A DNA stretch of 14,290 nt, taken from IMG/VR virus record IMGVR_UViG_2778261163_000002, positions 1 through 14,290 of that record. One strand, given 5' to 3'. Source of the DNA: a virus (lineage: Duplodnaviria; Heunggongvirae; Uroviricota; Caudoviricetes). The notes beneath the pieces were generated by a model. The model had not been told where the DNA came from. It did no database searches and was given only the letters and a program-made list of their open reading frames with translations. This document shows positions 1 to 14,290 of the stretch, in pieces. Position 1 is the stretch's first letter. Each line of letters starts with the position of its first letter. Made by a program: the position numbers and the translations under genes.

Positions 1-73
1 TGTCCGGCGCACGCACTCCACCTCACCCGTGGAGAACTCCTTAATTACCAACCTTAGCTTCGTTGGTTAGCTA

Positions 74-292
74 TTAACGCGGGTATGTAATCATTCTGGC
101 AATGCTTAATGCCGCTGCTTTTTCCAGCCTCGTGATATCCTGCTCCAGAGCGGACAGATTTTCAGCCTGCTTAGCCCTGGCTTCATTGGCCCATTTCAGA
201 TCCTGCGCTGCATTAATTTTCTGGCGCATCCACTCATAAAGTTCATCATCGGTATAATCTGGCGCGATGATGACGGGTTCTCGTTTCTGCAT
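74..292 (-). CDS. small prophage protein, 72 aa, YdfC-like by size and synteny
   Basis: Intact 72-aa ORF, charged helical composition; GAGG 8 nt upstream of the ATG on the minus strand; third gene downstream of the DicA-like repressor, matching the ydfA(51)-ydfB(42)-ydfC(72) layout of Qin. Family assignment is by size and position only, not sequence recall. Confidence 0.6.
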   Translation of the reverse strand: MQKREPVIIAPDYTDDELYEWMRQKINAAQDLKWANEARAKQAENLSALEQDITRLEKAAALSIARMITYPR

Positions 293-321
293 ACTGATTC
301 CTCGCGGTGTTGCTTCGCTTA

Positions 322-450
322 TCAGCCGTTAGATTTTGCCGAGCTGGAAAGCGCCTGTTTAAACTCACTGAAGCTGAGAGCTTCTTCGCCTTCGGCAAGG
401 CCTTCGAAGTATTCTTCGTAAGCCTTTTCCATGATTGTGTCGAAATCCAT
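322..450 (-). CDS. small acidic protein, 42 aa (MDFDTIMEKAYEEYFEGLAEGEEALSFSEFKQALSSSAKSNG), YdfB-like by size and synteny
   Basis: Hand-translated minus-strand ORF below the 60-aa cutoff of the supplied track; ATG at 450..448 lies 1 nt after the TGA of the upstream gene (TGATATG), with AGGTGG inside the upstream ORF. Confidence 0.45.
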   Translation of the reverse strand: MDFDTIMEKAYEEYFEGLAEGEEALSFSEFKQALSSSAKSNG

Positions 451-451
451 A

Positions 452-607
452 TCACCCACCTGAATTTCTTTCCAGCCAGCGACGCGCTCCAGATTCGGTT
501 TTAAACGTTTTGCTTTTGGTATACGTCATTGCGGTGAACGTACCGTCCTGGTTGGGGAACACGCCACATACCAGAGATTCGCTGTTGCCAAGATTGATAG
601 TATCCAT
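452..607 (-). CDS. small protein, 51 aa from internal ATG (MDTINLGNSESLV...), YdfA-like by size and synteny; ORF extends upstream to 688
   Basis: Minus-strand ORF 452..688; the ATG at 607 is preceded by GAGG with 5-nt spacing and gives 51 aa; the N-terminal extension from 688 looks non-protein-like. Confidence 0.45.
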   Translation of the reverse strand: MDTINLGNSESLVCGVFPNQDGTFTAMTYTKSKTFKTESGARRWLERNSGG

Positions 608-779
608 GCTGACCTCATTTCCCCTTAACGCCGGGGTAGCGGAACAAAAACCTGCTGCATAGTTATTAAAGTTGAACCCTGCCGTCATGTTCTTACGCCT
701 CGGGCTGGCTACTTAACCCCTGACCACTGCCTGGTAACTCGAAGTATTGCCCTGCATTCTGTGGGGCGGGGTGGGTGGC

Positions 780-830
780 AGGTATATAATGTACTTTGCG
801 TTCATTGTTGTAAAGTACTTTTAGTACATT
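780..830 (-). promoter_or_regulatory. candidate promoter/operator for the ydfA-like operon
   Basis: On the minus strand: -35-like TTTACA (complement of 810..815), 17-bp spacer, -10-like CATTAT (complement of 786..791); AATGTACT at 788..795 overlaps the -10 and its reverse complement AGTACATT sits at 823..830. Confidence 0.3.
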
Positions 831-904
831 CTGTGTGTAAAAAAATGAGATGGGATAAAGTGAAGCACAAACCCGGAGGAAGGCGCTACCGGATTTATGC
901 TGGT

Positions 905-1324
905 TTAAGAGGCTTTTTGTTTTTTCTTTCGTGCTAACTCTTCGTAAATTGCATTGTACTTCTGTTTTTTCTCTTCAAGAGTTTTTAAAAGTTCATCTGT
1001 CTCACTGTCAGGGAGCTCGTCCAGAAGGTCAATGATGATTTTTTGTCTTGGATTTAACTCCTGATAGAAACGTACCTGTCCACTTTCTTCTGTATCCTCT
1101 CCCAAAAGATAGGTTGGTGTTGTTCCTATTAGTGTTGCTAATTCCCTTAATTTCTCCCGGCGAGGAATTGTTTCGCCATTAAACCATTTGCTAACCGCTT
1201 TTGGTGTTAATTTCATTCGACGGGCAATTTCTGCCTGCCTTCCATGTTGTTCATAACCAGCGTTTTCACAGGCTAGCGCAAGCCTACTGGCGAACTCTTT
1301 ACGCGCTTTATCTTCATGAACCAT
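905..1324 (-). CDS. XRE-family HTH prophage repressor, DicA/CI-like
   Basis: 139-aa ORF with an N-terminal HTH-like segment (QAEIARRMKLTPKAVSKWFNGE) and an acidic C-terminal region; divergent from the cro-like gene; no Shine-Dalgarno before the ATG, so possibly leaderless. Confidence 0.75.
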   Translation of the reverse strand: MVHEDKARKEFASRLALACENAGYEQHGRQAEIARRMKLTPKAVSKWFNGETIPRREKLRELATLIGTTPTYLLGEDTEESGQVRFYQELNPRQKIIIDLLDELPDSETDELLKTLEEKKQKYNAIYEELARKKKQKAS

Positions 1325-1403
1325 AAGTTCAATGATATTCGCTCTTGAATGTACTGTCAGTTCTGTTATAGCATGTACTCAAAGTTCACATTGTGAGGGT
1401 GAT
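1325..1403. promoter_or_regulatory. immunity-region divergent promoter/operator interval
   Basis: 79-bp gap between divergent repressor and cro-like genes; ATGTACT repeated at 1348..1355 and 1373..1379; inverted repeat TTCAA-N12-TTGAA at about 1328..1349; near-palindrome TCACATTGTGA at 1386..1396. Confidence 0.5.
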
Positions 1404-1658
1404 ATGAACCAGAAAACACTTGAAGATGTAATCAAAACTGTTCGCGTTGCTGTTGTGGCCGACGTTTGTGGTGTCAGCCAAAGAGCAATCTATAAATGGA
1501 TGGATAACGGAAAATTGCCTCGCACAGAATATACCGGCGAAACAAATTACGCTGAAAAAATCGCTCTTGCATCAAACGGATTATTTTCTGCCGATGCAAT
1601 TTTAACTATTGGCAGGAATAAAACTACTACGAAAAAGCTGATGGGAGTTGATTCATGA
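1404..1658 (+). CDS. Cro-like small DNA-binding protein (84 aa)
   Basis: In-frame ATG at 1404 preceded by GAGGGTG with 5-nt spacing; HTH-like segment (VADVCGVSQRAIYKWMDNG); divergent from the repressor; stop overlaps the next start (ATGA). Confidence 0.6.
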   Translation: MNQKTLEDVIKTVRVAVVADVCGVSQRAIYKWMDNGKLPRTEYTGETNYAEKIALASNGLFSADAILTIGRNKTTTKKLMGVDS

Positions 1659-2080
1659 AAATCAAGCATGAACACATCCGCATGGCGATGAATGCCTGGG
1701 CGCATCCGGACGGCGAAAAAGTACCGGCTGCGAAAATTACCAAAGCGTATTTCGAGCTGGGAATGACGTTCCCGGAACTGTATGACGACAGCCATCCGGA
1801 AGCCTTGGCTCGCAATACCCAGAAAATTTTCCGCTGGGTAGAGAAAGACACCCCTGATGCAGTTGAAAAAATTCAGGCGTTGTTACCAGCGATCGAAAAG
1901 GCAATGCCACCTTTGCTGGTGGCCAGAATGCGCAGCCACAGTTCAGCTTATTTTCGGGAGCTGGTGGAGACGCGGGAGCGATTGGTGAGAGACGCTGATG
2001 ATTTTGTCGCAGTGGCAATCGCCGGTTTCAATCAGATGAACCGTGGTGGCCCGGCAGGAAATGCTGTGGCAGTACATTGA
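1655..2080 (+). CDS. YdaT-family protein (CII-like regulator, formerly called a putative toxin)
   Basis: 141-aa ORF starting MKIKHEHI, recalled as the characteristic YdaT N-terminus; position immediately after cro matches racR-ydaS-ydaT synteny. Confidence 0.6.
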   Translation: MKIKHEHIRMAMNAWAHPDGEKVPAAKITKAYFELGMTFPELYDDSHPEALARNTQKIFRWVEKDTPDAVEKIQALLPAIEKAMPPLLVARMRSHSSAYFRELVETRERLVRDADDFVAVAIAGFNQMNRGGPAGNAVAVH

Positions 2081-2151
2081 CTGACAATAGCCATATCGAA
2101 TCGCTTCCGGCAACTCGTGAGTAAAAAGATTCGGTATCAGAAGAGGTGAGT

Positions 2152-3222
2152 ATGGCTAACGCCTGGCTCAGATTATGGCATGACATGCCAAATGACCCTA
2201 AGTGGCGAACAATTGCCAGGGTGTCAGGGCAGCCAATTGCAACAGTGATGGCAGTGTATATCCACCTCCTGGTGAGCGCGTCACGAAATGTCACGCGAGG
2301 TCACATTGATGTCACGACAGAAGATTTGGCAAGTGCGCTCGACGTGACAGAAGAGGTAATTGATTCAATTTTGCAGACGATGCAGGGGCGGGTACTTGAT
2401 GGTGATTTAATCACTGGATGGGAAAAACGCCAGGTGCTTAAAGAGGACAACGGCAATATTTCGCAAACCGCAAAATCTCCTGCAGAGCGCAAGAGGGCGC
2501 AGCGAGAGAGGGAAAGAAAGCAGGAACAAAATGGCGATTGTCACGGCGCGTCACGAAATGTCACGCACATGTCACGACGAGTCACGACAGATAAAGATAC
2601 AGATAAAGATACAGATCAAGAAGATCAAAACACTATGGTCCATGGCGTAAAAAACGCCACGAACCAGGCAGGGGATGTTCAGACCGTCAATCCTGGTCAG
2701 CCAGCAGGCACGACACCGGAAGCCGATTCAGCGTATGCGCTGAAAGCCGATTCGGGCGCTGTGCAGCAGGTGATGACCGCAAGGCCGGAGCAATCACACC
2801 AACTGCAGCAGCCTGAAGCCGATTCCGCCATTCAGCGGGAAGCCGATCGGGTAGTCCCGGAAAACACCGGGCAGCCTGTGGGACGAGTAGATTATCCGGA
2901 TGTGTTCGAACAGGTCTGGCGGGAATACCCGTTGCGTGCTGGGGCAAACCCGAAGAAATCCGCTTTCAGTGCCTGGAAGGCCAGATTACGCGAGGGGGTG
3001 CCACCAGAGGCCATGCTGGATGGTGTGAGGCGTTACGCAAGATACCTGGCGGCTACCGGGAAAACGGGAACGGAATTTGTTCAGCGAGCGACGACGTTTT
3101 TTGGACCGGACCGGAATTTTGAGAACCCTTGGTTGCTCCCGGTAAGCGGCACGAACAACCAGCGTTGTGTGAATCATATTTCTGAACCGGATAACGAAAT
3201 TCCGCCGGGCTTCAGGGGGTAA
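2152..3222 (+). CDS. phage replication initiator / replisome organizer, DUF1376 YdaU-like N-terminal domain
   Basis: ATG at 2152 preceded by AAGAGGTG; N-terminus WLRLWHDMPNDPKWRTIA resembles DUF1376 (recalled); two GTCACG iteron arrays and an acidic DKDTDKDTD linker lie inside the ORF, as with the lambda O gene and its origin. Confidence 0.65.
   Translation: MANAWLRLWHDMPNDPKWRTIARVSGQPIATVMAVYIHLLVSASRNVTRGHIDVTTEDLASALDVTEEVIDSILQTMQGRVLDGDLITGWEKRQVLKEDNGNISQTAKSPAERKRAQRERERKQEQNGDCHGASRNVTHMSRRVTTDKDTDKDTDQEDQNTMVHGVKNATNQAGDVQTVNPGQPAGTTPEADSAYALKADSGAVQQVMTARPEQSHQLQQPEADSAIQREADRVVPENTGQPVGRVDYPDVFEQVWREYPLRAGANPKKSAFSAWKARLREGVPPEAMLDGVRRYARYLAATGKTGTEFVQRATTFFGPDRNFENPWLLPVSGTNNQRCVNHISEPDNEIPPGFRG
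2291..2327. repeat. iteron array A: four direct GTCAC(G/A) repeats at 10/10/11-bp spacing
   Basis: GTCACG at 2291, 2301, 2322 and GTCACA at 2311; an inverted copy CGTGAC at 2354..2359. Confidence 0.7.
2540..2612. repeat. iteron array B (five GTCACG repeats at 10/10/11/10-bp spacing) plus adjacent 12-bp tandem repeat; candidate replication origin
   Basis: GTCACG at 2540, 2550, 2560, 2571, 2581; then AGATAAAGATAC x2 (2589..2612) forming an A-rich stretch; TCACGAAATGTCACG is shared exactly with array A. Confidence 0.7.
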
Positions 3223-3262
3223 GTGTTAATTTCTGGTCATGAGGTAATTTTCAGGAGGGCTT

Positions 3263-3688
3263 GTGGCAAAAGTATTTACACAAGAAGAGCGGGAAAAAAT
3301 TAAGAGGCAGGTTGTTGAACTCGTGCGCCTGAGCGGGCGCGAGACGTTACGACAACTGGAAGCGAAAACAGGTGCGACAAGATATCTGATGAGTGTTCTC
3401 GCCAGAGAGCTGGTTGCCAGTGGCGATGTATACAATTCTGGCTACGGGTTATTCCCGTCTGAACAGGCGCGTAAGGACTGGCAAAATGCCCGCAAAAAAC
3501 TCTCAAGGGCAAAGGTGAAGAAACCTGCAGTGGTTGATCCGGACCTTATCTGGTCGTTACCAGACGGCGAAATACGCCGCTACGACAGGCGCCTGAATAT
3601 AATCTGTCGCGAGTGCCGGAAGAGCGAAGCTATGCAGCGTGTACTGGCATTTTATCAAGGAAATGTTAGGTATTTTAGACGTTACTAG
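3263..3688 (+). CDS. hypothetical protein (141 aa), basic, unknown function
   Basis: GTG start at 3263 preceded by CAGGAGGG; protein-like composition; no family recognised from memory. Confidence 0.55.
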   Translation: MAKVFTQEEREKIKRQVVELVRLSGRETLRQLEAKTGATRYLMSVLARELVASGDVYNSGYGLFPSEQARKDWQNARKKLSRAKVKKPAVVDPDLIWSLPDGEIRRYDRRLNIICRECRKSEAMQRVLAFYQGNVRYFRRY

Positions 3689-3841
3689 ATTAAAGAGCAT
3701 TAGTTCAGATGTGAATTGACATTTTCATGGCGCAGGGTAGAGCCAGCGTGGTTGTCCGCTTTGCGTCAAAACCAGATATTACCAGATTTAGACATATATT
3801 CCCGATAGCCCTGCTCTGATGCTACACTCTGTGCTATTTTC

Positions 3842-4528
3842 ATGACCCCAATAAAAATATTTATGACTATTGCTGATTTCAAACGGCCTAAATTGGAGCT
3901 CCCAAACGGGGCAAACAAACTACTACTGCACTCTTGCTGTGCTCCATGTTCCGGTGAAGTGATGGAGGCGCTTCAGGCCTCGGGAATCGACTACACCATC
4001 TTTTTCTACAACCCGAACATTCATCCTCAGAAAGAGTATTTAATTCGTAAGGATGAAAATATTCGCTTTGCTGAACAACACGGCGTGCCGTTTATCGATG
4101 CTGATTACGACACCGACAACTGGTTTGAACGTGCCAAAGGAATGGAATGGGAGCCTGAGAGGGGGATCCGTTGTACCATGTGTTTTGACATGCGTTTTGA
4201 GCGGACAGCGTTGTACGCTGCTGAAAATGGTTTCAGTGTGATCAGCAGTTCACTGGGCATTTCACGCTGGAAAAATATGCAGCAGGTTAACGAGTGTGGG
4301 CGGCGAGCTGTTGCGCATTATCCGGGTATGGTGTACTGGGATTATAACTGGCGCAAGCAGGGCGGCTCGTCCCGTATGATTGAAATCAGCAAGCGCGAAA
4401 AATTCTATCAGCAGGAATATTGTGGCTGTGTGTATTCTCTGCGCGATACCAATCTACACCGCAAATCTCAGGGACGCCCTCTTATCAAAATTGGCCAACT
4501 CCACTACGGAAAAGAAGAGAAGGAGTGA
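3842..4528 (+). CDS. queH: epoxyqueuosine reductase QueH homolog (DUF208 family)
   Basis: 228-aa ORF with HSCCAPCS near the N-terminus, YNPNIHP, RCxxCF and a C-terminal YCGCVYS motif, recalled as hallmarks of the Fe-S, B12-independent QueH family; start could alternatively be the ATG at 3863. Confidence 0.7.
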
Positions 4529-4765
4529 TTTTATGGATCACCTTTCTGATTGATTTCATATTGGCGAGGTGACGTGAGTTAAGTAGAATGGCTGCGGGTG
4601 CTTGAGGCTATCTGTCTCAGGCATGAACACTGAAAGGCAGATAGAGAAAAGCCCCAGTTAACATTACGCGTCCGGCAAGACGCTTAACATTAATCTGAGG
4701 CTCAATCTATGAACGGCAAATCTAGGTTAGCCTCTTACGTGCCGAAAGGCAAGGAGAAGCAGGCT

Positions 4766-4921
4766 ATGAAGCAGCAAAAGGCGATGTTAATCGCCCTGAT
4801 CGTCATCTGTTTAACCGTCATTGTGACGGCACTGGTAACGAGGAAAGACCTCTGCGAGGTACGAATCCGAACCGGCCAGACGGAGGTCGCTGTCTTCACA
4901 GTCTACGAACCTGAGGAGTAA
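4766..4921 (+). CDS. hokD: Hok/Gef-family type I toxin, HokD (RelF)-like, 51 aa
   Basis: MKQQKAMLIALIVICLTVIVTALVTRKDLCEVRIRTGQTEVAVFTVYEPEE matches the recalled HokD sequence almost exactly; AAGGAG 9 nt upstream; the ORF continues in frame upstream to 4709, which is probably not biological. Confidence 0.8.
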   Translation: MKQQKAMLIALIVICLTVIVTALVTRKDLCEVRIRTGQTEVAVFTVYEPEE

Positions 4922-4991
4922 GAGACTTGGCGAGGGAGAAATCCCTCGCCGCCTCTGATGTGTCAGGCATCCTCAACGCACCCGCACTTAA

Positions 4992-5010
4992 CCCGCTTCG
5001 GCGTTTTTTC
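4992..5010 (+). terminator. rho-independent terminator after hok
   Basis: CCCGC-TTCG-GCG stem-loop followed by TTTTTT. Confidence 0.55.
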
Positions 5011-5064
5011 CGTTGATTAACTCTAGTTATTAGAGAACCGAACTTTTATTGATGGGGCAGGGAG

Positions 5065-5457
5065 ATGAAGAAACTTGTTTTAGTCGCAGGTGTAATGATT
5101 GCAACAGTAATGTTGGGAGGGTGTGCAGCAAAGGTCGATCCAGCGTTGAAAGCAGAAGCAATGAAGCCACTAACATGTAATGATGAAAAGCAATGTGACT
5201 TTTATTGGAAACGAGCGCAATTCTGGTTGGCTAATAATTCCTCATGGAAAATTCAAACGGCGACAGACACGCTAATTTCCACTTATAATCCCTCTCCAAA
5301 TAGTCCATTCCTCGCTTATCAAGTGAGTAAAATGCCAAATGAAGATGGATCCTCAAGAATTTTCATCAAGCCTTTTTGCGATAATATGTTTGGCTGTCAA
5401 CCAAACCCCTATCAGGCAGTTGTTTCCTTTAAAAACTTCGTTAAAACAGGGCAGTAG
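5065..5457 (+). CDS. putative lipoprotein (130 aa), four conserved-looking Cys, unknown function
   Basis: Signal peptide with lipobox LGG-C (MKKLVLVAGVMIATVMLGGC); GGGAG before the ATG; AT-rich codon usage compared with flanking genes; terminators on both sides. Confidence 0.7.
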   Translation: MKKLVLVAGVMIATVMLGGCAAKVDPALKAEAMKPLTCNDEKQCDFYWKRAQFWLANNSSWKIQTATDTLISTYNPSPNSPFLAYQVSKMPNEDGSSRIFIKPFCDNMFGCQPNPYQAVVSFKNFVKTGQ

Positions 5458-5655
5458 TGTATAGCTTGGACGATAAATTATTAGTGAAAACGCCGTAAAC
5501 CCTCACCCAATGTGGACTAAGCCTATCAAACATGACTGTGATGATTAGTCCGTAGTTGTTGCCTATGAAATCTGGATTGAGTCAGGGTTTAATCCAATAA
5601 TTATTCTATCGTTCCTTTACAAGTCCGGTATATTACTTTCAGTTTGTTTTAGCAT

Positions 5656-5681
5656 ACCCGCTTCGGCGGGTTTTGTTTTTT
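5656..5681 (+). terminator. rho-independent terminator
   Basis: CCCGC-TTCG-GCGGG stem-loop followed by TTTTGTTTTTT. Confidence 0.65.
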
Positions 5682-5753
5682 CCTGGCATTCTGGTTTACA
5701 ATTCGCACGCCAGCCTGAACAACTGGCACCTGCTGCGCCAGCAGAGACAACCG

Positions 5754-6032
5754 ATGGCGCACGATACCAAATTACACAATTCTAATGATTCTGCCGTCTT
5801 TGCCAGCAGGCGCGGACGGCGTTTTCACGTATTCAAATCAGACTGGTTCCAGCATCCTCCATGCACTGAAGAGCAGGCGGAATGGATAATTCAGTGTTAC
5901 CGCAGGCGCGGATACGAGGTTAAGAAAGCCCTCAGCCTCGATTATCGTCACTGGATAATCTATGTCAGGCTCCCTTATTCCGAACGCCCACCGCGCCCAT
6001 CCCGCACATACCAGCAACGGATCTGGAGGTAA
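5754..6032 (+). CDS. hypothetical small protein (92 aa from internal ATG), position equivalent to rem in Qin
   Basis: ORF 5673..6032; the upstream part overlaps the terminator, so an internal start is assumed; its stop TAA at 6030 overlaps the GGAGG of the next gene. Start and reality uncertain. Confidence 0.35.
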   Translation: MAHDTKLHNSNDSAVFASRRGRRFHVFKSDWFQHPPCTEEQAEWIIQCYRRRGYEVKKALSLDYRHWIIYVRLPYSERPPRPSRTYQQRIWR

Positions 6033-6033
6033 C

Positions 6034-7089
6034 GTGCGGATATTACTTCGACCTGTTCTGGTACCGGAACTTGGGCTGGTGGTCCTTAGGCCGGGCCGTG
6101 AATCCATGCAAGTATTTCATAACCCTCGAGTGCTGGTGGAGCCTGAACCGAAAAGCATGCGCGGTCTGCCGTCCGGAGTCGTCCCTGCCGTTCGCCAGCC
6201 GCTGGCGGAGGATAAATCATTACTGCCATTTTTCAGCGATGAGCGGGTGATTCGTGCTGCTGGCGGCGCTGGGGCACTGTCTGACTGGCTGTTGCGTCAT
6301 GTCAAATCCTGCCAGTGGCCTCATGGTGACTATCATCACAGTGAAATCGTCATACATCGTTACGGTACCGGCGCGATGGTGTTGTGCTGGCACTGCGACA
6401 ACCAGTTGCGTGACCAGACATCCGAATCACTCGGGCAACTTGCTCATCAAAACCTGTCAGCATGGATGATTGACGTCATACGCCATGCAATGAATGGCAC
6501 GCAGGAGCGGGAATTGTCGCTGGCTGAATTATCCTGGTGGGCGGTCTGCAATCAGGTGGCGGACGCGCTTCCGGAGGCAGTATTACGTCGTTCTCTGGGG
6601 TTACGTGCGGAAAAAATCCGCTCCTTGTACCGCGAAAGCGACATCGTACCGGGAGAGCAGACCGCCACCAGCATACTGAAGCAGCGCACAAAAAATCTTG
6701 CGCCGTTGCCTCATGCCCACCAGCAAAACCCGCCACAGGAAAAGACGGTGGTCAGCATTGCCGTTGATCCGGAGTCACCGGCTCAGTATCTCCAGCGCCA
6801 GAAACCACAACGGGAAGAGATGCCTGTATACACGCGTTGGGTAAAAACGCAGAAATGCATGACGTGCGGTAATCAGGCAGATGATCCGCATCACATCATT
6901 GGTCATGGACTGGGAGGGATGGGAACAAAGGCTGATGATTTGTTTGTTATTCCGCTGTGCCGTAAATGTCATAACGAACTGCACGCCGGGGTAAAAGATT
7001 TTGAAGAAAAACACGGCAGCCAGCTGTTGTTGCTGATTCGTTTTTTAATGCACGCGAGAAATTCGGGTGTCCTGAAGTGGAAAGCATGA
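6034..7089 (+). CDS. DUF968-family protein, YdfU-like, with C-terminal HNH-like Cys/His motif
   Basis: GTG at 6034 preceded by GGAGGT; C-terminus CMTCG...DDPHHIIGHGLGG...CRKCHNELH; the ORF is open upstream to 5962, so the start is uncertain; sits between hok and rusA/Q as in Qin. Confidence 0.65.
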   Translation: MRILLRPVLVPELGLVVLRPGRESMQVFHNPRVLVEPEPKSMRGLPSGVVPAVRQPLAEDKSLLPFFSDERVIRAAGGAGALSDWLLRHVKSCQWPHGDYHHSEIVIHRYGTGAMVLCWHCDNQLRDQTSESLGQLAHQNLSAWMIDVIRHAMNGTQERELSLAELSWWAVCNQVADALPEAVLRRSLGLRAEKIRSLYRESDIVPGEQTATSILKQRTKNLAPLPHAHQQNPPQEKTVVSIAVDPESPAQYLQRQKPQREEMPVYTRWVKTQKCMTCGNQADDPHHIIGHGLGGMGTKADDLFVIPLCRKCHNELHAGVKDFEEKHGSQLLLLIRFLMHARNSGVLKWKA

Positions 7090-7455
7090 ATGACTGAACG
7101 CATAGAATTTGTTTTGCCTTACCCGCCGACGGTGAATACCTACTGGCGACGTCATGGCAATACGTATTTCATCTCGGAGGCCGGAAAGCGTTATCGCCAT
7201 GATGTGGCGCTAATTGTTCGCCAGCAGCGGTTGAAATTAAACCTGTCCGGAAGGCTGGCGATAAAGATTATTGCAGAGCCACCGGATAAGCGCCGTCGTG
7301 ACCTGGACAATATCCTGAAAGCACCACTGGATGCGCTGACGCATGCCGGACTACTCATAGATGACGAGCAGTTTGATGAAATCAATATTGTGCGCGGTCA
7401 GCTCGTTCCTGGTGGGCGGCTGGGGATAAAAATCACAGAACTGGAGTGCGCATGA
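7090..7455 (+). CDS. rusA: RusA Holliday-junction resolvase
   Basis: 121-aa protein with the RRRDLDN motif and overall similarity to recalled RusA; typical nin-region position upstream of Q. Confidence 0.85.
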   Translation: MTERIEFVLPYPPTVNTYWRRHGNTYFISEAGKRYRHDVALIVRQQRLKLNLSGRLAIKIIAEPPDKRRRDLDNILKAPLDALTHAGLLIDDEQFDEINIVRGQLVPGGRLGIKITELECA

Positions 7456-8141
7456 ATAACCAGTATTTACAGTTTGTGCGTGAGCAGCTCATTATCGCCA
7501 CCGCTGATTTGAGTGGGGCAACAAAAGGTCAGCTTGAAGCCTGGCAGGAGAATGCCATGTTCGATACAGGGCGTTACAGGCGTAAAAAAATCCGGTACCG
7601 AGATGAAGTGACCGGAAAAATGATTACGCGGGATAATCCACCAATCCCGGGGAAACAATCGCTGGCGAAGGGGACGTCAATTCCTCTGGTCAGTCCGGTT
7701 GAGTTTTCGACATCATCGTGGCGGCGGGCTGTTCTGTCTCTTGAAGAACATCATAAAGCCTGGTTGTTGTGGTGTTACAGCGGGAGTATTTGTTGGGAAT
7801 ATCAGATCGCGATAACACAGTGGGCGTGGAATGAATTTAATACTCAATCCGGTACCAGAAAAATTGCAGGGAAAACGCAGGAACGCCTGAAAAAATTAAT
7901 CTGGCTGGCGGCGCAGGCATTAAAAGCAGAACTTTTTGGTGGGGAAGGTTATGAATACCAGGAGCTGGCATTACTGGCGGGAGTGACAACTAAAAACTGG
8001 TCCAAAACATTTACTCGTCACTGGGTTGCAATGAAACACATTTTTCACCGACTTGATAGTGAGGCTTTATTGTTTGTAATGAGAACACGTTCAAAACAAA
8101 AGGCGGCATTTTCAAAGCAAAGTGTTGCAAAAGTAGATTGA
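7452..8141 (+). CDS. late-gene antiterminator Q-like protein (QuuQ-type), 229 aa
   Basis: Start ATG overlaps the rusA stop (ATGA); located directly upstream of a promoter/terminator pair, the tRNAs and the lysis genes; no lambda-Q zinc-finger motif, so the call is mainly positional. Confidence 0.55.
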   Translation: MNNQYLQFVREQLIIATADLSGATKGQLEAWQENAMFDTGRYRRKKIRYRDEVTGKMITRDNPPIPGKQSLAKGTSIPLVSPVEFSTSSWRRAVLSLEEHHKAWLLWCYSGSICWEYQIAITQWAWNEFNTQSGTRKIAGKTQERLKKLIWLAAQALKAELFGGEGYEYQELALLAGVTTKNWSKTFTRHWVAMKHIFHRLDSEALLFVMRTRSKQKAAFSKQSVAKVD

Positions 8142-8153
8142 AAGGCATATATT
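8125..8153 (+). promoter_or_regulatory. pR'-like late promoter
   Basis: -35 TTGCAA (8125..8130), 17-bp spacer, -10 TATATT (8148..8153), overlapping the 3' end of the Q-like gene; a terminator lies about 55 nt downstream. Confidence 0.45.
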
Positions 8154-8204
8154 TCATGCAAATCTGATATTTTGCCGATTTTGTACGTGATGGCAAAAGC
8201 AAAC

Positions 8205-8230
8205 AAAACCCGCCCACAAGCGGGTTTTTT
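8205..8230 (+). terminator. tR'-like rho-independent terminator
   Basis: AAAACCCGC-CCACAA-GCGGGTTTT stem-loop followed by a T-run. Confidence 0.65.
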
Positions 8231-8297
8231 GTGCCACTTATCTCGGATAGACATGGTGAATGCGCTGGTGGAGGAGATAAGGGTGATTTTTGAATGC

Positions 8298-8326
8298 TTG
8301 CAACATTGATTTCGTAACGTTATTAT
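8298..8326 (+). promoter_or_regulatory. candidate sigma70 promoter for the tRNA cluster
   Basis: -35 TTGCAA (8298..8303), 17-bp spacer, -10 TATTAT (8321..8326); predicted start about 8333, just before the first tRNA at 8336. Confidence 0.5.
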
Positions 8327-8335
8327 CCTGCGCCC

Positions 8336-8411
8336 GGCCCTTTAGCTCAGTGGTGAGAGCGAGCGACTCATAATCGCCAGGTCGCTGGTTCAAATCCAGC
8401 AAGGGCCACCA
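8336..8411 (+). tRNA. tRNA with anticodon CAT, closest to tRNA-Ile2 (lysidine, ileX/ileZ-like); Met not excluded
   Basis: Cloverleaf folded by hand: acceptor GGCCCTT/AAGGGCC, D arm GCTC/GAGC, anticodon loop CTCATAA, T loop TTCAAAT, encoded CCA; close to recalled E. coli ileX. Confidence 0.8.
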
Positions 8412-8412
8412 G

Positions 8413-8489
8413 CCGCCACTAGCTCATCAGGAAAGAGCGTCAACCCTTTAAGTTGAGTGTGCGAGGTTCGAGTCCCCGATGGCGGTCCA
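8413..8489 (+). tRNA. tRNA-like gene with aberrant features, anticodon loop CCTTTAA (UUU, Lys-like); possible pseudo-tRNA
   Basis: D arm GCTC/GAGC, anticodon stem TCAAC/GTTGA, T loop TTCGAGT, encoded CCA; but C at position 33 instead of the invariant U, a mismatch in the T stem and a mismatch at acceptor pair 7-66. Confidence 0.5.
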
Positions 8490-8491
8490 GT

Positions 8492-8567
<76 letters not shown>

Positions 8568-8570
8568 TAT

Positions 8571-8645
<75 letters not shown>

Positions 8646-8651
8646 GTTAGA

Positions 8652-8697
8652 GTCTTTCAGTCTGCGATGATGGGAAATCCCGGAGTGACTGAAAGAC
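8652..8697. repeat. perfect 11-bp inverted repeat (GTCTTTCAGTC / GACTGAAAGAC) with 24-nt loop
   Basis: Arms at 8652..8662 and 8687..8697 are exact reverse complements; located immediately after the tRNA-Gly gene. Confidence 0.7.
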
Positions 8698-8705
8698 GTT
8701 TAAGT

Positions 8706-8776
8706 TATGAATGATCGCTTTTTTTTGCAAAATTGCTGTGCAGAAATACTAACCTTCGGGCAGGCGATCATTCATA
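8706..8776. repeat. perfect 13-bp inverted repeat (TATGAATGATCGC / GCGATCATTCATA) flanking a 45-bp core
   Basis: Arms at 8706..8718 and 8764..8776; a T9 run follows the left arm. Confidence 0.7.
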
Positions 8777-8852
8777 AGCACTCTGCTTTTATTCCGATTA
8801 ACTGTGGGTGGTTTGTTGGATAGAGTGCTTTCCTTACTGTATATATTGTTTC

Positions 8853-8877
8853 GCCCGCTTTTGCGGGCTTTTCTTTT
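8853..8877 (+). terminator. rho-independent terminator upstream of the holin gene
   Basis: GCCCGC-TTTT-GCGGGC stem-loop followed by TTTTCTTTT. Confidence 0.65.
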
Positions 8878-8937
8878 CAAATCCCTTTCATTTCTCAGTG
8901 TAAAACTACGCCATCCGTTATTTGCGGAGGTGAGGCT

Positions 8938-9153
8938 ATGAAATCCATGGACAAAATTTCAACGGGCATTGCCTATGGCACCTCCGCAGGCAGTGCTGGC
9001 TACTGGTTTTTACAGTGGCTTGATCAGGTCAGTCCGTCACAGTGGGCTGCGATTGGTGTGCTGGGGAGTCTGGTTCTGGGCTTCCTGACTTATCTGACAA
9101 ATCTGTACTTCAAAATCAGAGAAGACAAGCGTAAGGCTGCACGGGGAGAGTAA
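8938..9153 (+). CDS. class II holin / pinholin, phage-21 S-like, dual-start motif MKSM
   Basis: 71-aa protein matching the recalled S21 pinholin; GGAGGTGAGG before the ATG; Met1/Met4 dual start typical of antiholin/holin pairs. Confidence 0.85.
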
Positions 9154-9157
9154 TTCA

Positions 9158-9508
9158 ATGACTCAAAACTATGAACTGATTGTGAAAGGGATCCGCAATT
9201 TTGAGAATAAAGTTACGGTAACTTTAGCGTTACGGGACAAAAAACGCTTTGACGGTGAAATTTTTGACCTGGACATCTCGCTGGACCGTGTTGAAGGTGC
9301 CGCGCTGGAGTTTTATGAGGCAGCAGCCAGAATGAGCATCAGACAGGTCTTCCTGGATGTTGCTGCCGGGTTATGTGAAGGGGATGAGCAGTCGCCGGAA
9401 AAGCGCCCCGTAATTTTAGAGGCGCAGAATGTATGGATAACCTACAAAGGAAAGCTACCGGGAAGAATTACTGGTTCTCTGAAGACTCCTCCGGAATCAC
9501 AACCTTAA
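9158..9508 (+). CDS. hypothetical protein (116 aa) inserted between holin and endolysin
   Basis: ATG 4 nt after the holin stop, GGAGAG 7 nt upstream; no TM segment or signal peptide evident; no family recognised. Confidence 0.55.
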   Translation: MTQNYELIVKGIRNFENKVTVTLALRDKKRFDGEIFDLDISLDRVEGAALEFYEAAARMSIRQVFLDVAAGLCEGDEQSPEKRPVILEAQNVWITYKGKLPGRITGSLKTPPESQP

Positions 9509-9571
9509 GTCACTGACCGGAACAGATAAACCTGTCCGTGGGCAGAAACCGATAAATCCTGATAAATATCC

Positions 9572-10105
9572 ATGAACGCAAAAATCAGATACGGCCTGTC
9601 GGCTGCCGTTCTGGCACTGATTGCCGTCGGTGCGCCCGCGCCTGATATTCTCGACCAGTTTCTGGATGAAAAAGAAGGTAACCACACAACGGCATACCGC
9701 GATGGGTCCGGCATCTGGACCATCTGTCGGGGTGCCACGATGGTGGATGGAAAACCCGTTTTTCCCGGTATGAAACTGTCGAAGGAAAAATGCGACCAGG
9801 TCAACGCCATTGAGCGTGATAAGGCGCTGGCATGGGTGGAGCGCAATATTAAAGTACCACTGACCGAACCACAAAAAGCGGGTATAGCGTCATTCTGTCC
9901 CTATAACATTGGCCCCGGTAAGTGTTTCCCGTCGACGTTTTATAAGCGGCTGAATGCCGGTGATCGTAAGGGCGCATGCGAGGCGATTCGCTGGTGGATA
10001 AAAGATGGTGGGCGCGATTGCCGCATACGTTCAAATAACTGCTATGGACAGGTTATTCGTCGTGACCAGGAAAGCGCATTAGCCTGTTGGGGGATAGAGC
10101 AGTGA
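9572..10105 (+). CDS. SAR endolysin (phage lysozyme, R21-like)
   Basis: N-terminal signal-anchor-release segment [18 protein letters not shown]; overall similarity to recalled phage-21 R; stop overlaps the Rz start. Confidence 0.8.
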
Positions 10106-10563
10106 GCAGAGTCGCCGCGATTATTTATGCTTTGGTTATCTGCATCATCGTCTGCCTGTCGTGGGCGGTCAATCATTACCGTGATAACGCCATCGCCTAC
10201 AAAGAACAGCGTGATAAAAAAGTCAGTGAGCTGAAGCAGGCGATCGCCACCATCGCTGACATGCAACAGCGTCAGCGTGATGTTGCTGCACTCGATGCAA
10301 AGTACTCGAGAGAATTAGCCAATGCGAAAGCTGAAAATGAAACTCTGCGCGCTGATGTTGCCGCTGGTCGTCGTCGGTTGCACATCAAAGCAGTCTGTCA
10401 GTCAGTGCGTGAAGCCACCACCGCCTCCGGCGTGGATAATGCAACCAGCCCCCGACTGGCAGACACCGCTGAACGGGATTATTTCACCCTCAGAGAGAGG
10501 CTGATCACTATGCAAAAACAACTGGAAGGAACCCAGAAGTATATTAATGAGCAGTGCAGATAG
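10102..10563 (+). CDS. Rz: Rz i-spanin
   Basis: GTG start giving MSRVAAII..., near-identical to recalled lambda Rz; N-terminal TM segment; C-terminus ...QKYINEQCR. Confidence 0.85.
10322..10504 (+). CDS. Rz1: Rz1 o-spanin lipoprotein, embedded in Rz in the +1 frame
   Basis: 60-aa ORF with lipobox VVGC and a PPPPP run, near-identical to recalled lambda Rz1. Confidence 0.85.
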
Positions 10564-10594
10564 AGCTGCCCATATCGATGGGCAACTCATGCAA

Positions 10595-10888
10595 TTATTG
10601 TGAGCAATACACACGCGCTTCCAGTGGAGTATAAATGCCTAAAGTAATAAAACCGAGAAATCCATTTACGAATGTTTGCTGGGTTTCTGTTTTAACAACA
10701 TTTTCTGCGCCGCCACAAATTTTGGCTGCATCAACAGTTTTCTCCTGTCCAATTCCCGAAACGAAGAAATGATGGGTGATGGTTTCCTTTGGTGTTACTG
10801 CTGTCGGTTTGTTTCCAACAGTAAACGTCTGTTGAGCACATCCTGTAATAAGCATTGCCAGAGCGGCAGAAAACAACATTTTTTTCAT
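10595..10888 (-). CDS. bor: Bor lipoprotein (serum-resistance, Iss family)
   Basis: 97 aa from MKKML...ITGCAQQTFTV...LEARVYCSQ, near-identical to recalled lambda Bor; start taken at the internal ATG (10888), preceded by AGGA. Confidence 0.85.
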   Translation of the reverse strand: MKKMLFSAALAMLITGCAQQTFTVGNKPTAVTPKETITHHFFVSGIGQEKTVDAAKICGGAENVVKTETQQTFVNGFLGFITLGIYTPLEARVYCSQ

Positions 10889-11068
10889 CTTATTATCCTG
10901 CATTGTTAAAAACGGCAGAATCCTATGTGACAACAATTAAACGATAGTTAAATGGATTGATGAAAATTAAAACTATATAGGTGGATGCTCAGCCTATTGG
11001 AGGTAGTCAGGATTTGAATGTCAGTCTGTTGTCGGCATTCTGGCAATGCAATTTGGATAAAGCGGGGA

Positions 11069-11191
11069 TTAAAAAGATAGAGGCGAGCCGGTCAGGTAGA
11101 AATGAATCAGGCTCAAAGTGAAGCGGAAAAGGTCTGTGGCACAAGCTGATGCAGCCATAATTACAGCCTGATGATTTGTGGAATGAAACAT
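11069..11191 (-). CDS. small ORF, 40 aa (MFHSTNHQAVIMAASACATDLFRFTLSLIHFYLTGSPLSF), hypothetical
   Basis: Hand-translated; AAGGAGGT Shine-Dalgarno 6 nt upstream of the ATG on the minus strand; below the ORF-track cutoff. Confidence 0.35.
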   Translation of the reverse strand: MFHSTNHQAVIMAASACATDLFRFTLSLIHFYLTGSPLSF

Positions 11192-11413
11192 GTTGAACCT
11201 CCTTAATTGATGTTATTCGAGTGATGAAGGCATTCTGTCCTTCTATAGTGTCCAGTAAATCAAACAGGAAACTTGTCCAACGTGTTGGACAAGCCTCTCC
11301 ATTAGTGAGTTGTATTGATCACAACTCTACAAAGAATTCATTACTGGGTAGATGAAAATAGTTTCACTATGAATGGAGGAGGCTATGTCGGTGGCTTCTT
11401 CATTGGAGTACAT

Positions 11414-11764
11414 ATGCCCCCACGAATCCCACGCGCCTGCCGTAAGCGTGGATGTGCAGGTACAACCACAGACAGTTCTGGTTACTGCGATAAACATCGT
11501 GGCGAAGGATGGGTACAGCATCAACGCGGACTGAGCCGCCACCAGCGTGGCTATGGCTCGAAATGGGATGCCATACGTGCGCGCATACTGAAGCGTGATA
11601 ATCATCTGTGTCAGAACTGCCTGCGCAATGGGAGAGCCGTTGAAGCCAGAACTGTGGACCACATCATTCCGAAAGCTCATGGTGGCACGGATGCAGACAG
11701 TAACCTGCAGAGTCTGTGCTGGCCCTGTCATAAAGCAAAAACAGCGCGCGAACGCATCAATTGA
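11414..11764 (+). CDS. HNH endonuclease (packaging-associated)
   Basis: Cys/His motif CQNCL...VDHIIPKAHGG...NLQSLCWPCHKAK; GGAG 5 nt before the ATG at 11414; the ORF is open upstream to 11315 (alternative ATG at 11369); located just upstream of the terminase genes as in HK97-like phages. Confidence 0.75.
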   Translation: MPPRIPRACRKRGCAGTTTDSSGYCDKHRGEGWVQHQRGLSRHQRGYGSKWDAIRARILKRDNHLCQNCLRNGRAVEARTVDHIIPKAHGGTDADSNLQSLCWPCHKAKTARERIN

Positions 11765-11911
11765 TAACAGTTCCCATCTGTAGGGGAGGGGCAGGTCAAA
11801 TCTCTGCAACCCTGGCTGCTCAGTACCGCCGCCTGACCTTTCCTCGCATCGCCGCAGGTTCGAAAACTTTTTTTTGGAATGTGATTAAATGATTGATAGG
11901 TAAAACCGATT

Positions 11912-12394
11912 ATGTCTGGACCCCCGAAAACCCCGCCACGCCTGCATTTGATACGAGGTAACCCCTCAAAGCGGCCAGTTAAAGACTCCAAAAAAACCGC
12001 TAAAAAGGATGAAAAAGGTCTCCCTAAAATTCCGCAACATTTAGGGGCGCAGGGGAAGTACTGGTTCAGGCGAATGGCGGAAGAGCTGAATGCGGAAGGG
12101 ATCATTTCTCAGCTCGATGCACGTGCGCTCGAGTTACTGGTGGAAGCCTACACCGAATACCGGCATCACTGCGAAATACTCGATGTTGAGGGTTATACCT
12201 ACCGCACGGAAACGCAGAATGGCGATGTGCTGATCAAGGCACACCCGGCTGCTGCGATGAAGGCTGATGCCTGGAAGCGGATTCGGGCGATGCTTGCAGA
12301 GTTTGGTATGTCACCGGCAAGCCGGGCGAAAGTAAATACCGCCGGACCGGATGATGTTGATCCGCTGGCAGAGCTTTTAAAAGCGAGAGACTGA
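11912..12394 (+). CDS. terminase small subunit (P27-family-like)
   Basis: 160-aa basic protein directly upstream of and overlapping the large terminase gene (TGATG); recalled similarity to P27-family small terminases. Confidence 0.7.
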   Translation: MSGPPKTPPRLHLIRGNPSKRPVKDSKKTAKKDEKGLPKIPQHLGAQGKYWFRRMAEELNAEGIISQLDARALELLVEAYTEYRHHCEILDVEGYTYRTETQNGDVLIKAHPAAAMKADAWKRIRAMLAEFGMSPASRAKVNTAGPDDVDPLAELLKARD

Positions 12395-14151
12395 TGGCAA
12401 AAGTGGCTGACGGGATCCGCTACGCCGAACGTGTTGTTGCAGGAGAAATTGTTGCTGGCGAATTTGTCCGTCTGGCCTGCCAGCGTTTTCTTGATGATCT
12501 GAAGTACGGCGAAGAGCGGGGGATTTATTTCAGTGAACCTCGTGCACAGCACATCCTTAATTTCTACAAATTTGTACCCCATGTGAAAGGGGCGCTGGCA
12601 GGTCAGCCCATTGAGTTGATGGACTGGCATGTGTTTATCCTCATTAATATTTTTGGTTTTGTCATTCCGCTGGTGAATGAAGAAACCGGGGAAGTTGTCA
12701 TGCGCAGCGATGGCAGTGGACGCCCGGTGATGGTGCGCCGGTTCCGGACAGCATACAACGAAGTTGCCCGTAAAAACGCAAAATCAACCCTGTCATCGGG
12801 TATCGGTCTGTATATGACGGGGGCAGATGGTGAAGGCGGGGCTGAGGTGTATTCAGCCGCAACCACGCGTGACCAGGCCAGAATTGTGTTTGAAGACGCC
12901 AAAAATATGGTCAGAAAAGCCCGGTCGACACTCGGGCGGTTGTTTGATTTCAACAAGCTGGCGATTTACCAGGAGCAGAGCGCATCAAAATTTGAACCGC
13001 TTTCCTCGGATGCAAACAACCTGGACGGTCTGAACATCCACTGCGCCATTATTGATGAGCTGCATGCTCATAAAACCCGTGACGTGTGGGACGTTCTGGA
13101 AACGGCAACCGGTGCCCGTCTGCAGTCTCTGTTATTTGGCATCACCACGGCTGGCTTTAACAAGGAAGGGATTTGCTACGAGCAGCGCGATTACGCCATT
13201 AAGGTATTGCGAGGCTATAACAGCGACGTGGAGGGCGCGGTAAAAGACGACTCCTACTTTGCGATCATTTACACGCTCGATGAGGGAGATGATCCGTTTG
13301 ATGAAACGGTCTGGCAGAAAGCGAATCCTGGCCTGGGCATCTGTAAACGCTGGGATGATCTGCGTCGTCTGGCGAAAAAAGCGAAGGAGCAGGTCTCTGC
13401 GCGGGTGAATTTTTTTACCAAACACATGAATGTGTGGGTCACTGCCGAATCTGCCTGGATGGATATGATTAAGTGGGAGAAGTGCGAATACATTGCTCCA
13501 CAACATGAGCTGAAAACATATCCCATGTGGGTCGGCGTAGACCTTGCTCATAAGATTGATATCTGTGCGGCGGCAAAACTCTGGCGAACCGATAACGGAC
13601 ATGTTCATGCTGATTTTAAATTCTGGCTTCCGGAAGGACGGCTGGAGCGATGCTCGCGGCAGCAGGCAGAACTTTACCGGAAGTGGGCGGAGATGGATAA
13701 GCTCATCCTGACGGATGGTGATGTTATCGATCATGCTCAGATAAAAAGTGACTTACTGGAATGGATTGGCGGTGAAAACCTCAGGGAACTGGGATTTGAC
13801 CCGTGGAGCGCAATGCAGTTCAGCCTGGCACTGGCTGAAGAAGGGATACCGCTGGTGGAGGTTCCGCAGACGGTCCGCAATCTGTCAGAGGCCATGAAGG
13901 AAACGGAATCACTGGTTTATGCCGGGCGTTTCCATCACAGCAATCATCCGGTCATGAACTGGATGATGTCTAACGTTACGGTAAAACCGGACAAAAACGA
14001 CAACATCTTCCCGAATAAATCCACGCCTGAAGCCAAAATCGACGGCCCTGTTGCGCTTTTTACGGCCATGAGCCGCTTTCTGGTAAATGGCGGGGGCGTG
14101 AATGACTTTCTGTCCACGCTTGATCCTGATGAGGACCTGTTAATTCTGTGA
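12394..14151 (+). CDS. terminase large subunit (HK97-like family)
   Basis: 585-aa ORF coupled to the small subunit; size and position typical of large terminases; Walker-like and nuclease motifs not individually verified. Confidence 0.8.
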   Translation: MAKVADGIRYAERVVAGEIVAGEFVRLACQRFLDDLKYGEERGIYFSEPRAQHILNFYKFVPHVKGALAGQPIELMDWHVFILINIFGFVIPLVNEETGEVVMRSDGSGRPVMVRRFRTAYNEVARKNAKSTLSSGIGLYMTGADGEGGAEVYSAATTRDQARIVFEDAKNMVRKARSTLGRLFDFNKLAIYQEQSASKFEPLSSDANNLDGLNIHCAIIDELHAHKTRDVWDVLETATGARLQSLLFGITTAGFNKEGICYEQRDYAIKVLRGYNSDVEGAVKDDSYFAIIYTLDEGDDPFDETVWQKANPGLGICKRWDDLRRLAKKAKEQVSARVNFFTKHMNVWVTAESAWMDMIKWEKCEYIAPQHELKTYPMWVGVDLAHKIDICAAAKLWRTDNGHVHADFKFWLPEGRLERCSRQQAELYRKWAEMDKLILTDGDVIDHAQIKSDLLEWIGGENLRELGFDPWSAMQFSLALAEEGIPLVEVPQTVRNLSEAMKETESLVYAGRFHHSNHPVMNWMMSNVTVKPDKNDNIFPNKSTPEAKIDGPVALFTAMSRFLVNGGGVNDFLSTLDPDEDLLIL

Positions 14152-14290
14152 AACAGCTTATTACCTAGATTCTACGTCAGTACTTCAAAAAGCATAATCA
14201 AAGCCTTGATAAATATGCATTCCTTCGAAATTCAGCTTTCACCCATTGGGTGAAAGAAAAGTGCTCAAAAATATGTTAAATTATCAGCTT

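Follow-up and report, generated by a model that had tools for sequence, protein, structure and literature searches.

What is the function of a 40-codon open reading frame (ORF) on the minus strand of a prophage late region, and which polymerase would transcribe it? The stretch of DNA analysed here, positions 1 to 14,290 of IMG/VR virus record IMGVR_UViG_2778261163_000002 (the window, 14,290 nt), contains the late region of an Escherichia coli HK97-like or lambdoid prophage. A first-pass annotation of the window, made from the letters alone, pointed to the ORF between bor and the gene of an HNH endonuclease. The ORF is found exactly there, running from ATG to TAA in the same direction as bor, with the ATG of bor/iss (10888, minus strand) on one side and the ATG of the HNH gene (11414, plus strand) on the other. 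Within 130 nt upstream of the ORF, on the same strand, there are two predicted promoters for single-subunit phage RNA polymerases, which we call P1 and P2. We lean towards the view that the ORF is the payload of an infection-triggered cassette in HK97-like and lambdoid prophages, in which the polymerase of an invading phage would transcribe the gene of a membrane peptide.

The two promoters were scored with separate matrices. The matrix for P1 was derived from the 13 annotated promoters of Yepe2, which themselves range from 24.9 to 35.5 bits, and the matrix for P2 from 10 K1-5 sites, which range from 26.8 to 35.1 bits. P1 scores 27.1 bits, inside the Yepe2 range, with the next best site in the window at 5 bits, and it is nearly identical to annotated Yepe2 phi9, TAATACAACTCACTAATGGGAGA. 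P2 scores 35.1 bits, equal to the best K1-5 site and corresponding to the K1-5/K1E consensus; the stretch TGATTTACTGGACACTATAGAAGGAC is identical to the K1-5 site at 12587 at 25 of 26 bases. The rest of the window stays at or below 8 bits with both matrices, and scores in 5 Mb of random sequence reached no higher than ~21 bits. The SP6 consensus, allowing three mismatches, had 0 occurrences in 200 shuffles. In SfIV the allele of P1, CAATACGACTCACTAATGGGGAG, scores 30.9 bits, and the SfIV and DG341 alleles combine this sequence with ATTTAGGTGACACTTTAGAAG, which is the SP6 consensus with one mismatch.

Motifs of these types are in regular use in lytic phages. An SP6-group polymerase is active on TATTTACTGGACACTATAGGAGGA in vitro (PMC13029058), and the strong promoter of KP34, T(A/G)ATGTTACAGGAGTA, has been defined experimentally and works in vitro (PMC6834552). 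In lytic genomes the motifs recur strand-specifically, on the gene strand, with 13 annotated copies in Yepe2, 13 in K11, 10 in K1-5, 8 in SP6, 13 in vB_KpnP_ZK1, and 4 in KP34, and the P2 motif occurs 4–8 times per genome in Vectrevirus phages. At the level of sequence, P1 and P2 are established as promoters of single-subunit phage RNA polymerases.

The promoters are specific to this locus and to one strand. In 50 distinct related loci (447 kb), a cut-off of at least 20 bits gave 107 strong promoter hits, of which 99 lie within 320 nt upstream of the ORF on the ORF strand and 8 in a tandem duplicate of the array; strong hits on the strand opposite to the ORF numbered 0. The duplicate, found in four loci (L035, L067, L076, and L103) ~290 nt upstream, comprises P1, the hairpin, P2, and the Shine-Dalgarno sequence (SD) together with a 5' fragment of the HNH gene, and its ATG is lost. 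Across temperate phages of E. coli, Shigella, and Klebsiella, an SD, an ATG, and 36–40 codons stand behind 117 of 118 promoter arrays. The architectures are a Yepe2-type promoter followed by a K1-5 promoter (34 distinct loci), a Yepe2-type promoter followed by an SP6 promoter (5 loci), and a K11-type or T7-like promoter followed by ZK1 and KP34 promoters.

The last of these belongs to temperate Klebsiella phages, which have the same layout behind Rz1, namely tandem promoters and then an SD and a small ORF. Position 1 of the Klebsiella array is occupied by K11-type AATTAGGGCCCACTATAGAGA (29.9 bits) or by a T7-group variant (AATTAAGACTCACTATAGG, TAATGCGACTCACTATAGG, or AATTAGGTAGCACTATAGG). Position 2 is occupied by AATAGTGGCGAGTATAGAA, the promoter of vB_KpnP_ZK1, where all copies are on the gene strand and 0 on the other, and position 3 by TAATGTTAC(A/C)(C/G)GAGTA, the strong promoter of KP34. 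A fourth motif, AAGTTACACAATAGAA, stands just before the SD (for example, at 2665–2685, minus strand, of locus L007) and is weakly SP6-like, scoring 18–20 bits in a few of the loci. A 15-mer scan was unspecific and yielded no cognate lytic phage for it. In separate scans, an exact search for TTAAGACTCACTATTAGGA returned temperate loci only, and a looser pattern led to lytic T7-like contigs with CATTAAGACTCACTATAGGGAGA.

The arrays match their hosts: those of E. coli and Shigella carry promoters of E. coli and Salmonella phages, and those of Klebsiella carry promoters of Klebsiella phages. The first promoter has a variable specificity octamer (ACAACTCA, ACGACTCA, AAGACTCA, AGGGCCCA, AGGTAGCA, and GCGACTCA), which reassorts freely with at least four classes of ORF. 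A lytic genome has one of these promoter types at most, and the arrays must therefore have been assembled in temperate phages. Judged from their sequences, the Klebsiella versions make a relic explanation untenable.

Is the ORF itself a gene? Together with its strong SD, which the first-pass annotation had also reported correctly, the ORF alone is not beyond chance. In the window, a strong SD precedes three ORFs of 35 aa or more (the 40-aa ORF, a hok-like ORF at 4766 on the plus strand, and a likely holin at 8938 on the plus strand), while Markov-random windows contain 0.54 on average and 34% of them contain at least one. Since the bare observation is non-significant, the judgement that the ORF is a real gene comes from comparative evidence. 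Related loci were fetched by a 22-mer from the 3' end of the ORF, with no requirement for an open frame upstream. All but 3 of the 56 distinct sequences have an intact 37–40-aa ORF with a strong SD, the exceptions being one decayed copy, one truncated locus, and one unrelated chance match. The 22-mer scan of genome contigs had a single match (L011), a chance match in an unrelated metagenome-assembled genome. The decayed copy (L059, an IMG/VR contig) is a Klebsiella-type cassette in which ATG is changed to ATA, in-frame stops are present, and the promoter motifs are all sub-threshold.

Conservation and synonymous-substitution analysis, the check proposed along with the ORF, shows that the ORF is kept and that purifying selection acts in its frame, in codons 20–40 and in the Klebsiella classes. 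Specifically, 22 distinct E. coli-type sequences give a ratio of nonsynonymous to synonymous polymorphism (pN/pS) of 0.10 for codons 20–40 in the ORF frame, and all changes are nonsynonymous when the same codons are read in the overlapping Rz1 frame. In all four Klebsiella classes, for which pN/pS was computed on the non-overlapped two-thirds of each class, the ORF frame has the lowest value of the six frames (0.48, 0.43, 0.07, and 0.46). The segment from SD to ATG is near invariant, with a nucleotide diversity of 0.011 in 41 distinct E. coli-type sequences; the ungapped diversity profile is distorted upstream by indels and was used for the SD and ORF parts only. There are at least six unrelated classes of peptide, all hydrophobic (grand average of hydropathy, GRAVY, 0.65–1.7), and a strong SD is present in every other ORF class too. 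The E. coli and Shigella class is MFH/MLR...PLSF; those of Klebsiella are MLK..., MLE...PLSF, MLE/MLA...LQYF, and MSH...RRS, with MHK... in locus L080. The comparative evidence argues that the 40-codon ORF is a real, conserved tiny gene. As had been expected for so small a gene, none of the listed RefSeq E. coli matches annotates it; it appears as a hypothetical protein in one GenBank phage record.

The first-pass annotation described the peptide as moderately hydrophobic, in agreement with the GRAVY values. The Klebsiella classes have a clear transmembrane-like segment, with a best 17-residue window of at least 2.0 in most. Searches of Pfam, PHROG, PADLOC, and NCBIfam with the peptides gave no credible match, 0 of 10 peptide variants matched a PADLOC-DB defence model at E ≤1, and the ORF peptide matched no holin family. 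A search of ~5.8 billion predicted proteins returned few clusters of 40 aa, every one from E. coli or Klebsiella. Capture of the ORF from a lytic phage was considered and rejected: tblastn finds the peptides in temperate phages only, not in lytic Autographiviridae.

The surroundings of the ORF define how the module came to its place. SfV and SfIV are co-linear through ...DKAGIR.IE, and from the Rz1 stop to the HNH ATG there are 26 nt in SfV, while SfIV has ~290 nt extra, carrying the module. The module is absent in SfV and present in SfIV and is therefore a moron-like insertion. In the window, homology to SfIV begins at ~11002, and the plus strand from 10981 to 11121 encodes ...QCNLDKAGIKKIEASRSGRNESGSK, the C-terminus of Rz1 of SfIV and Klebsiella phages; the protein aligns with Rz1 of SfV, SfIV, and Klebsiella phages (...QCNLDKAGIKKIE...). 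This stretch is a relic here because lambda-type Rz, Rz1, and bor replaced the remainder of the gene. It covers the 3' half of the ORF and 65 nt downstream on the other strand. The intergenic region, which the first-pass annotation took to be roughly 480 bp and otherwise non-coding, measures 525 nt and contains this relic. The ORF extends into the ancestral 3' end of Rz1 and terminates within it, which accounts for a stop at the same position in unrelated ORF classes. The 92 nt from P1 to the HNH start codon (11322–11413) are inside the inserted module, present in SfIV and absent in SfV; on their plus strand, the HNH frame is already open from a TTG at 11315. In E. coli DG341-1 (L005), an extra insert of ~325 nt between the array and HNH (1753–1947 of the locus) carries a gene annotated as hypothetical (64 aa).

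In the concept of Juhala and Hendrix, a lambdoid moron (bor and lom are examples) brings a host-type promoter and terminator of its own, so that the repressed prophage expresses it. Like a moron, the module is small and separates two genes that stand side by side in a relative, and it occupies the classic moron site behind the lysis genes. Unlike a moron, it has no recognisable promoters other than those of foreign phage polymerases. A conservative scan from 10500 to 12000, which also left the bor promoter unflagged, detected no sigma-70 promoter on either strand and no terminator after the ORF. The suggestion that the ORF is a moron thus holds for the insertion, while its expression in the lysogen is unsupported; neither a host-type promoter nor a terminator was found, by a scan that is weak as negative evidence. 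The module is not linked to bor, which is lacking in SfIV, E. coli RM10466, and all Klebsiella versions, and the cassette is always at the end of the lysis cassette. In the absence of a terminator, transcripts in the window would run on into bor.

Table 1. Positions of the cassette and of neighbouring genes in the window
Feature	Positions	Strand	Sequence or remark
P1, T7/Berlinvirus-type promoter	11295–11317	minus	CAATACAACTCACTAATGGAGAG, −17 to +6; predicted +1 at 11300
5' stem-loop of P1 transcript	11267–11300	minus	GGAGAGGCTTGTCCAACACGTTGGACAAGTTTCC; terminator-like match, predicted 13–15 bp stem
P2, K1-5/K1E-type promoter (Vectrevirus, SP6 group)	11238–11260	minus	ATTTACTGGACACTATAGAAGGA; predicted +1 at 11243
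P2 transcript leader	11192–11243	minus	52 nt; 5-bp 5' hairpin 11243–11226, then unstructured, with upstream ORF and SD
Six-codon upstream ORF (MPSSLE) in P2 leader	11213–11233	minus	in frame with 40-aa ORF
Shine-Dalgarno sequence	11197–11204	minus	AAGGAGGT; 5 nt ahead of ATG
40-aa ORF, putative effector micropeptide	11069–11191	minus	ATG start, TAA stop (included); peptide MFHSTNHQAVIMAASACATDLFRFTLSLIHFYLTGSPLSF
Relic 3' end of SfIV/Klebsiella-type Rz1 (o-spanin) gene	11004–11121	plus	antisense to 3' part of ORF, contains ORF stop
Endolysin		plus	
Rz	10087–10563	plus	
Rz1	10322–10504	plus	
bor/iss	10888–10595	minus	
HNH endonuclease	11414–11764	plus	
Small terminase, P27 family	11912–12394	plus	
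Large terminase		plus	

Between P1 and P2, the predicted stem-loop is conserved as a structure. In 14 distinct variants 96.2% of cells pair, three pairs have compensatory changes on both sides, and the G.U pairs are valid solely on the ORF strand. Its core, GTCCAACACGTTGGAC, also stands ahead of promoters in lytic Molineuxvirinae. The stem-loop could stabilise the 5' end of the transcript, present a site for RNase III, insulate against read-through from the host, or terminate transcription in part. A role as the terminator of an upstream minus-strand gene was rejected: there is no such gene, the upstream DNA being HNH antisense.

The SD is essentially unpaired in the predicted fold of the P2 leader, and the leader as a whole has no more structure than shuffles (z = +1.08). 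The spacer to the ATG, given as exactly 6 nt by the first-pass annotation, is 6 nt when counted from the GGAGG core, while the full octamer leaves 5 nt (TCAAC). In an O157-type allele (L004), the stop of the upstream ORF is replaced by TCA, resulting in a possible 54-aa fusion. Rfam has nothing at the gathering threshold or at E ≤1 for the ORF region. A small RNA or RNA element made from the almost invariant 3' half of the ORF and its downstream flank was rejected as a candidate, the near-invariance being explained by the relic Rz1 and by selection in the ORF frame.

The layout on the ORF strand suggests a mechanism. A T7/Berlinvirus promoter, a long stem-loop, a K1-5-type (or SP6-type) promoter, an open leader with an SD, and the gene of a hydrophobic peptide follow one another. 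In the lysogen, the promoters would not be read, as host polymerase would not recognise them, and the stem-loop may block read-through. Upon infection by lytic Autographiviridae, the single-subunit RNA polymerase of the invader would transcribe its cognate promoters, even after host transcription is shut off. The peptide would then become abundant and probably insert into the inner membrane, and the infection would be aborted or excluded. Stacking of promoters of differing specificity would widen the range of phages sensed.

Several observations weigh against this mechanism. Promoter mutations are present in some alleles, such as CTCGCT in O157 (22.3 bits) and an A-to-T change at −3 in an SP6-type copy. 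Host polymerase may drive expression of the ORF, the sigma-70 scan being conservative, and P1 transcripts could be terminated at the stem-loop ahead of P2, short of the ORF. Hydrophobicity of the E. coli-type peptide is no more than moderate, the best 17-residue window reaching 1.3–1.8, and D20 and R23 stand in mid-sequence. Codons 2–19 of the E. coli class have a pN/pS of 1.74, with no indels, which may reflect either diversifying selection or relaxed constraint. The decayed copy and an insertion sequence (IS) in locus L006 indicate that the cassette is dispensable. In this locus (E. coli O157:H7 F1273; 1478–1530), IS1203, of the IS3 family, lies a few bases upstream of the SD and separates both phage-type promoters from the ORF, making it a natural knockout of the sensor part. 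Lastly, the defensive outcome is purely what we infer.

A cassette that fires on superinfection might serve a purpose other than defence, such as modulation of lysis or of the spanin, a prophage signal, or exploitation of the invader. Its invariable site at the end of the lysis cassette, in antisense overlap with the Rz1 3' end, would suit such a purpose, and in SfIV and the Klebsiella phages its transcripts would extend into Rz1, Rz, and the endolysin gene as antisense RNA. However, in the window bor stands in place of the lysis neighbour, and the cassette is nevertheless intact and common, and unrelated peptide classes suit a generic membrane effect better than a specific partner; we regard a non-defensive purpose as unlikely. 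More doubtful still is that the RNA is the functional product, for example as a long antisense or decoy transcript, with the peptide incidental. The covariation of the 5' stem-loop, with G.U pairs valid on one strand only, and the lack of purifying selection in the N-terminal half of the E. coli-type ORF are what such a product would predict, but the near-invariant SD and ATG, the strong SD and 36–40-codon frame kept by at least six unrelated ORF classes, and pN/pS values that are lowest in the ORF frame, both for codons 20–40 and for all Klebsiella classes, count against an RNA product, and there is no Rfam match at E ≤1.

The two remaining alternatives give no part to an invading polymerase. 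In a reading close to that of the first-pass annotation, the ORF would be an ordinary moron for a small membrane or toxin-like protein, expressed in the lysogen from a host-type promoter together with bor or in its manner, and the phage-polymerase promoters would be irrelevant. This is in keeping with the moron-like insertion, the orientation shared with bor, the strong SD, and a sigma-70 scan conservative enough to miss the bor promoter as well. However, that scan flagged nothing on either strand, a terminator-like hairpin lies upstream, most lineages have the module without bor, and it would remain unexplained that all 107 strong phage-polymerase promoter hits are located here and aimed at the ORF, so we hold this view to be very improbable. 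Just as little credence goes to the proposal that the arrays are non-functional scars left where temperate phages recombined with lytic Autographiviridae, and the ORF a fortuitous open frame. The segment of hairpin and P2 is homologous to an intergenic region of lytic Molineuxvirinae, the ORF with its SD is within chance, and decayed and IS-disrupted copies exist, all of which a scar would allow. It would not account for arrays joining two to four polymerase specificities that never occur together in one lytic genome, for their strict orientation and fit to the host genus, for purifying selection in the ORF frame and compensatory changes in the stem, or for peptides that are absent from lytic phages.

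An infection-triggered cassette would share parts with several known systems. Compared with the promoters of Autographiviridae (T7/Berlinvirus, SP6, K1-5/K1E, K11, and KP34), P1 and P2 are within or at the top of the cognate range. Unlike in those phages, the promoters are in a temperate prophage, are stacked with mixed specificities, and point against the prophage late operon; no single-subunit polymerase gene was seen in the prophage stretches examined. A related logic is that of T7 expression in BL21(DE3)/pET, and in its order of promoter, 5' stem-loop, strong SD, and ATG the cassette is similar to the T7 phi10 leader. The predicted product is similar to type I toxins (Hok, TisB, Ibs, and Ldr) in being a hydrophobic peptide of fewer than 60 aa, probably single-pass, with a strong SD, although there is no sequence similarity to these toxins. 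Unlike in type I toxin-antitoxin systems, neither a promoter on the opposite strand nor an antisense RNA was found, Rfam gave no match, and the predicted fold leaves the SD free; control would be exerted by promoter specificity, not by an antitoxin. A holin or antiholin gene would belong to the transcription unit of the endolysin, whereas the ORF and the endolysin, Rz, and Rz1 genes are on opposite strands.

Elements that use the transcription of another virus are known: P4-type satellites have late promoters activated by the helper, and the mavirus provirophage has late-promoter motifs of CroV. Engineered phage-inducible suicide cassettes in Lactococcus are the man-made counterpart. Like all of these, the cassette is a resident element with cis-signals that would be read by the transcription apparatus of an invader. 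Whereas those elements are parasites of the activating virus or man-made, here an unrelated temperate phage has promoters of several lytic groups before a single micropeptide gene, and no piracy of replication or packaging is evident. The exclusion systems RexAB of lambda and SieA and SieB of P22 act at the membrane; they are made in the lysogen and rely on proteins to sense infection. The cassette, likewise prophage-borne, has a putative effector at the membrane and would give protection from heterologous phages; unlike those systems, it would stay transcriptionally silent until an invader polymerase arrives, and it has no PADLOC model match.

Elsewhere in the window, a sok antisense RNA (Rfam RF01794, 111.9 bits) is found at 4596–4771 on the plus strand, followed by a 51-aa ORF from 4766 on the same strand with an AAGGAG SD; together they form a hok/sok-like type I toxin-antitoxin locus of the prophage, at ~4596–4920. 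Upstream of the lysis genes, at 8336–8645 on the plus strand, there is a cluster of four tRNA genes (Met-CAT, Lys-TTT, Thr-TGT, and Gly-TCC), and the 71-aa ORF with a strong SD at 8938 on the plus strand is probably the holin. The 147-nt gap between HNH and the small terminase (11765–11911) is presumably the position of cos, by analogy with HK97-type phages.

The cassette region is common. At least 80% of 10940–11320 is present in 601 of 5,426 complete E. coli genomes, which amounts to ~10% and includes O157:H7 strains. With the K1-5 promoter of the lytic phage as the query, matches were found in 539 E. coli genomes at 543 places, about once each, with an identical 29-nt alignment among the matches listed; the weakest listed match, the sole one inspected, lies between HNH and an Rz1-like gene. 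The cassette is also present in prophages of clinical Klebsiella pneumoniae strains, two of them from carbapenemase producers. Full-text literature searches, with most subscription journals outside their coverage, gave no description of prophage-borne arrays of phage-polymerase promoters.

About evenly balanced, in our judgement, is the wider proposal that the cassette is a widespread prophage "promoter trap", in which promoters copied from or mimicking those of several lytic phage groups would switch on a membrane-active micropeptide. Sensing would occur by cis-regulatory mimicry, with no sensor protein or antitoxin, and would be immune to the shut-off of host transcription; sensor and effector modules would reassort, and the specificity bases of the promoters would be in an arms race. 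If the cassette acts in this way, the arrays would be a natural record of the polymerase-promoter specificities circulating in a host and a source of ready-made orthogonal sensor parts, and they would illustrate that tiny ORFs skipped by standard annotation can be the sole payload of a regulatory device. Podophages similar to K1-5/K1E, SP6, T7, K11, and KP34 are used in phage therapy, and if the proposal is true, the cassette could forecast therapy failure or guide the choice of phage. It would also represent a new principle in bacterial immunity, namely that a virus is sensed through its own transcription specificity.

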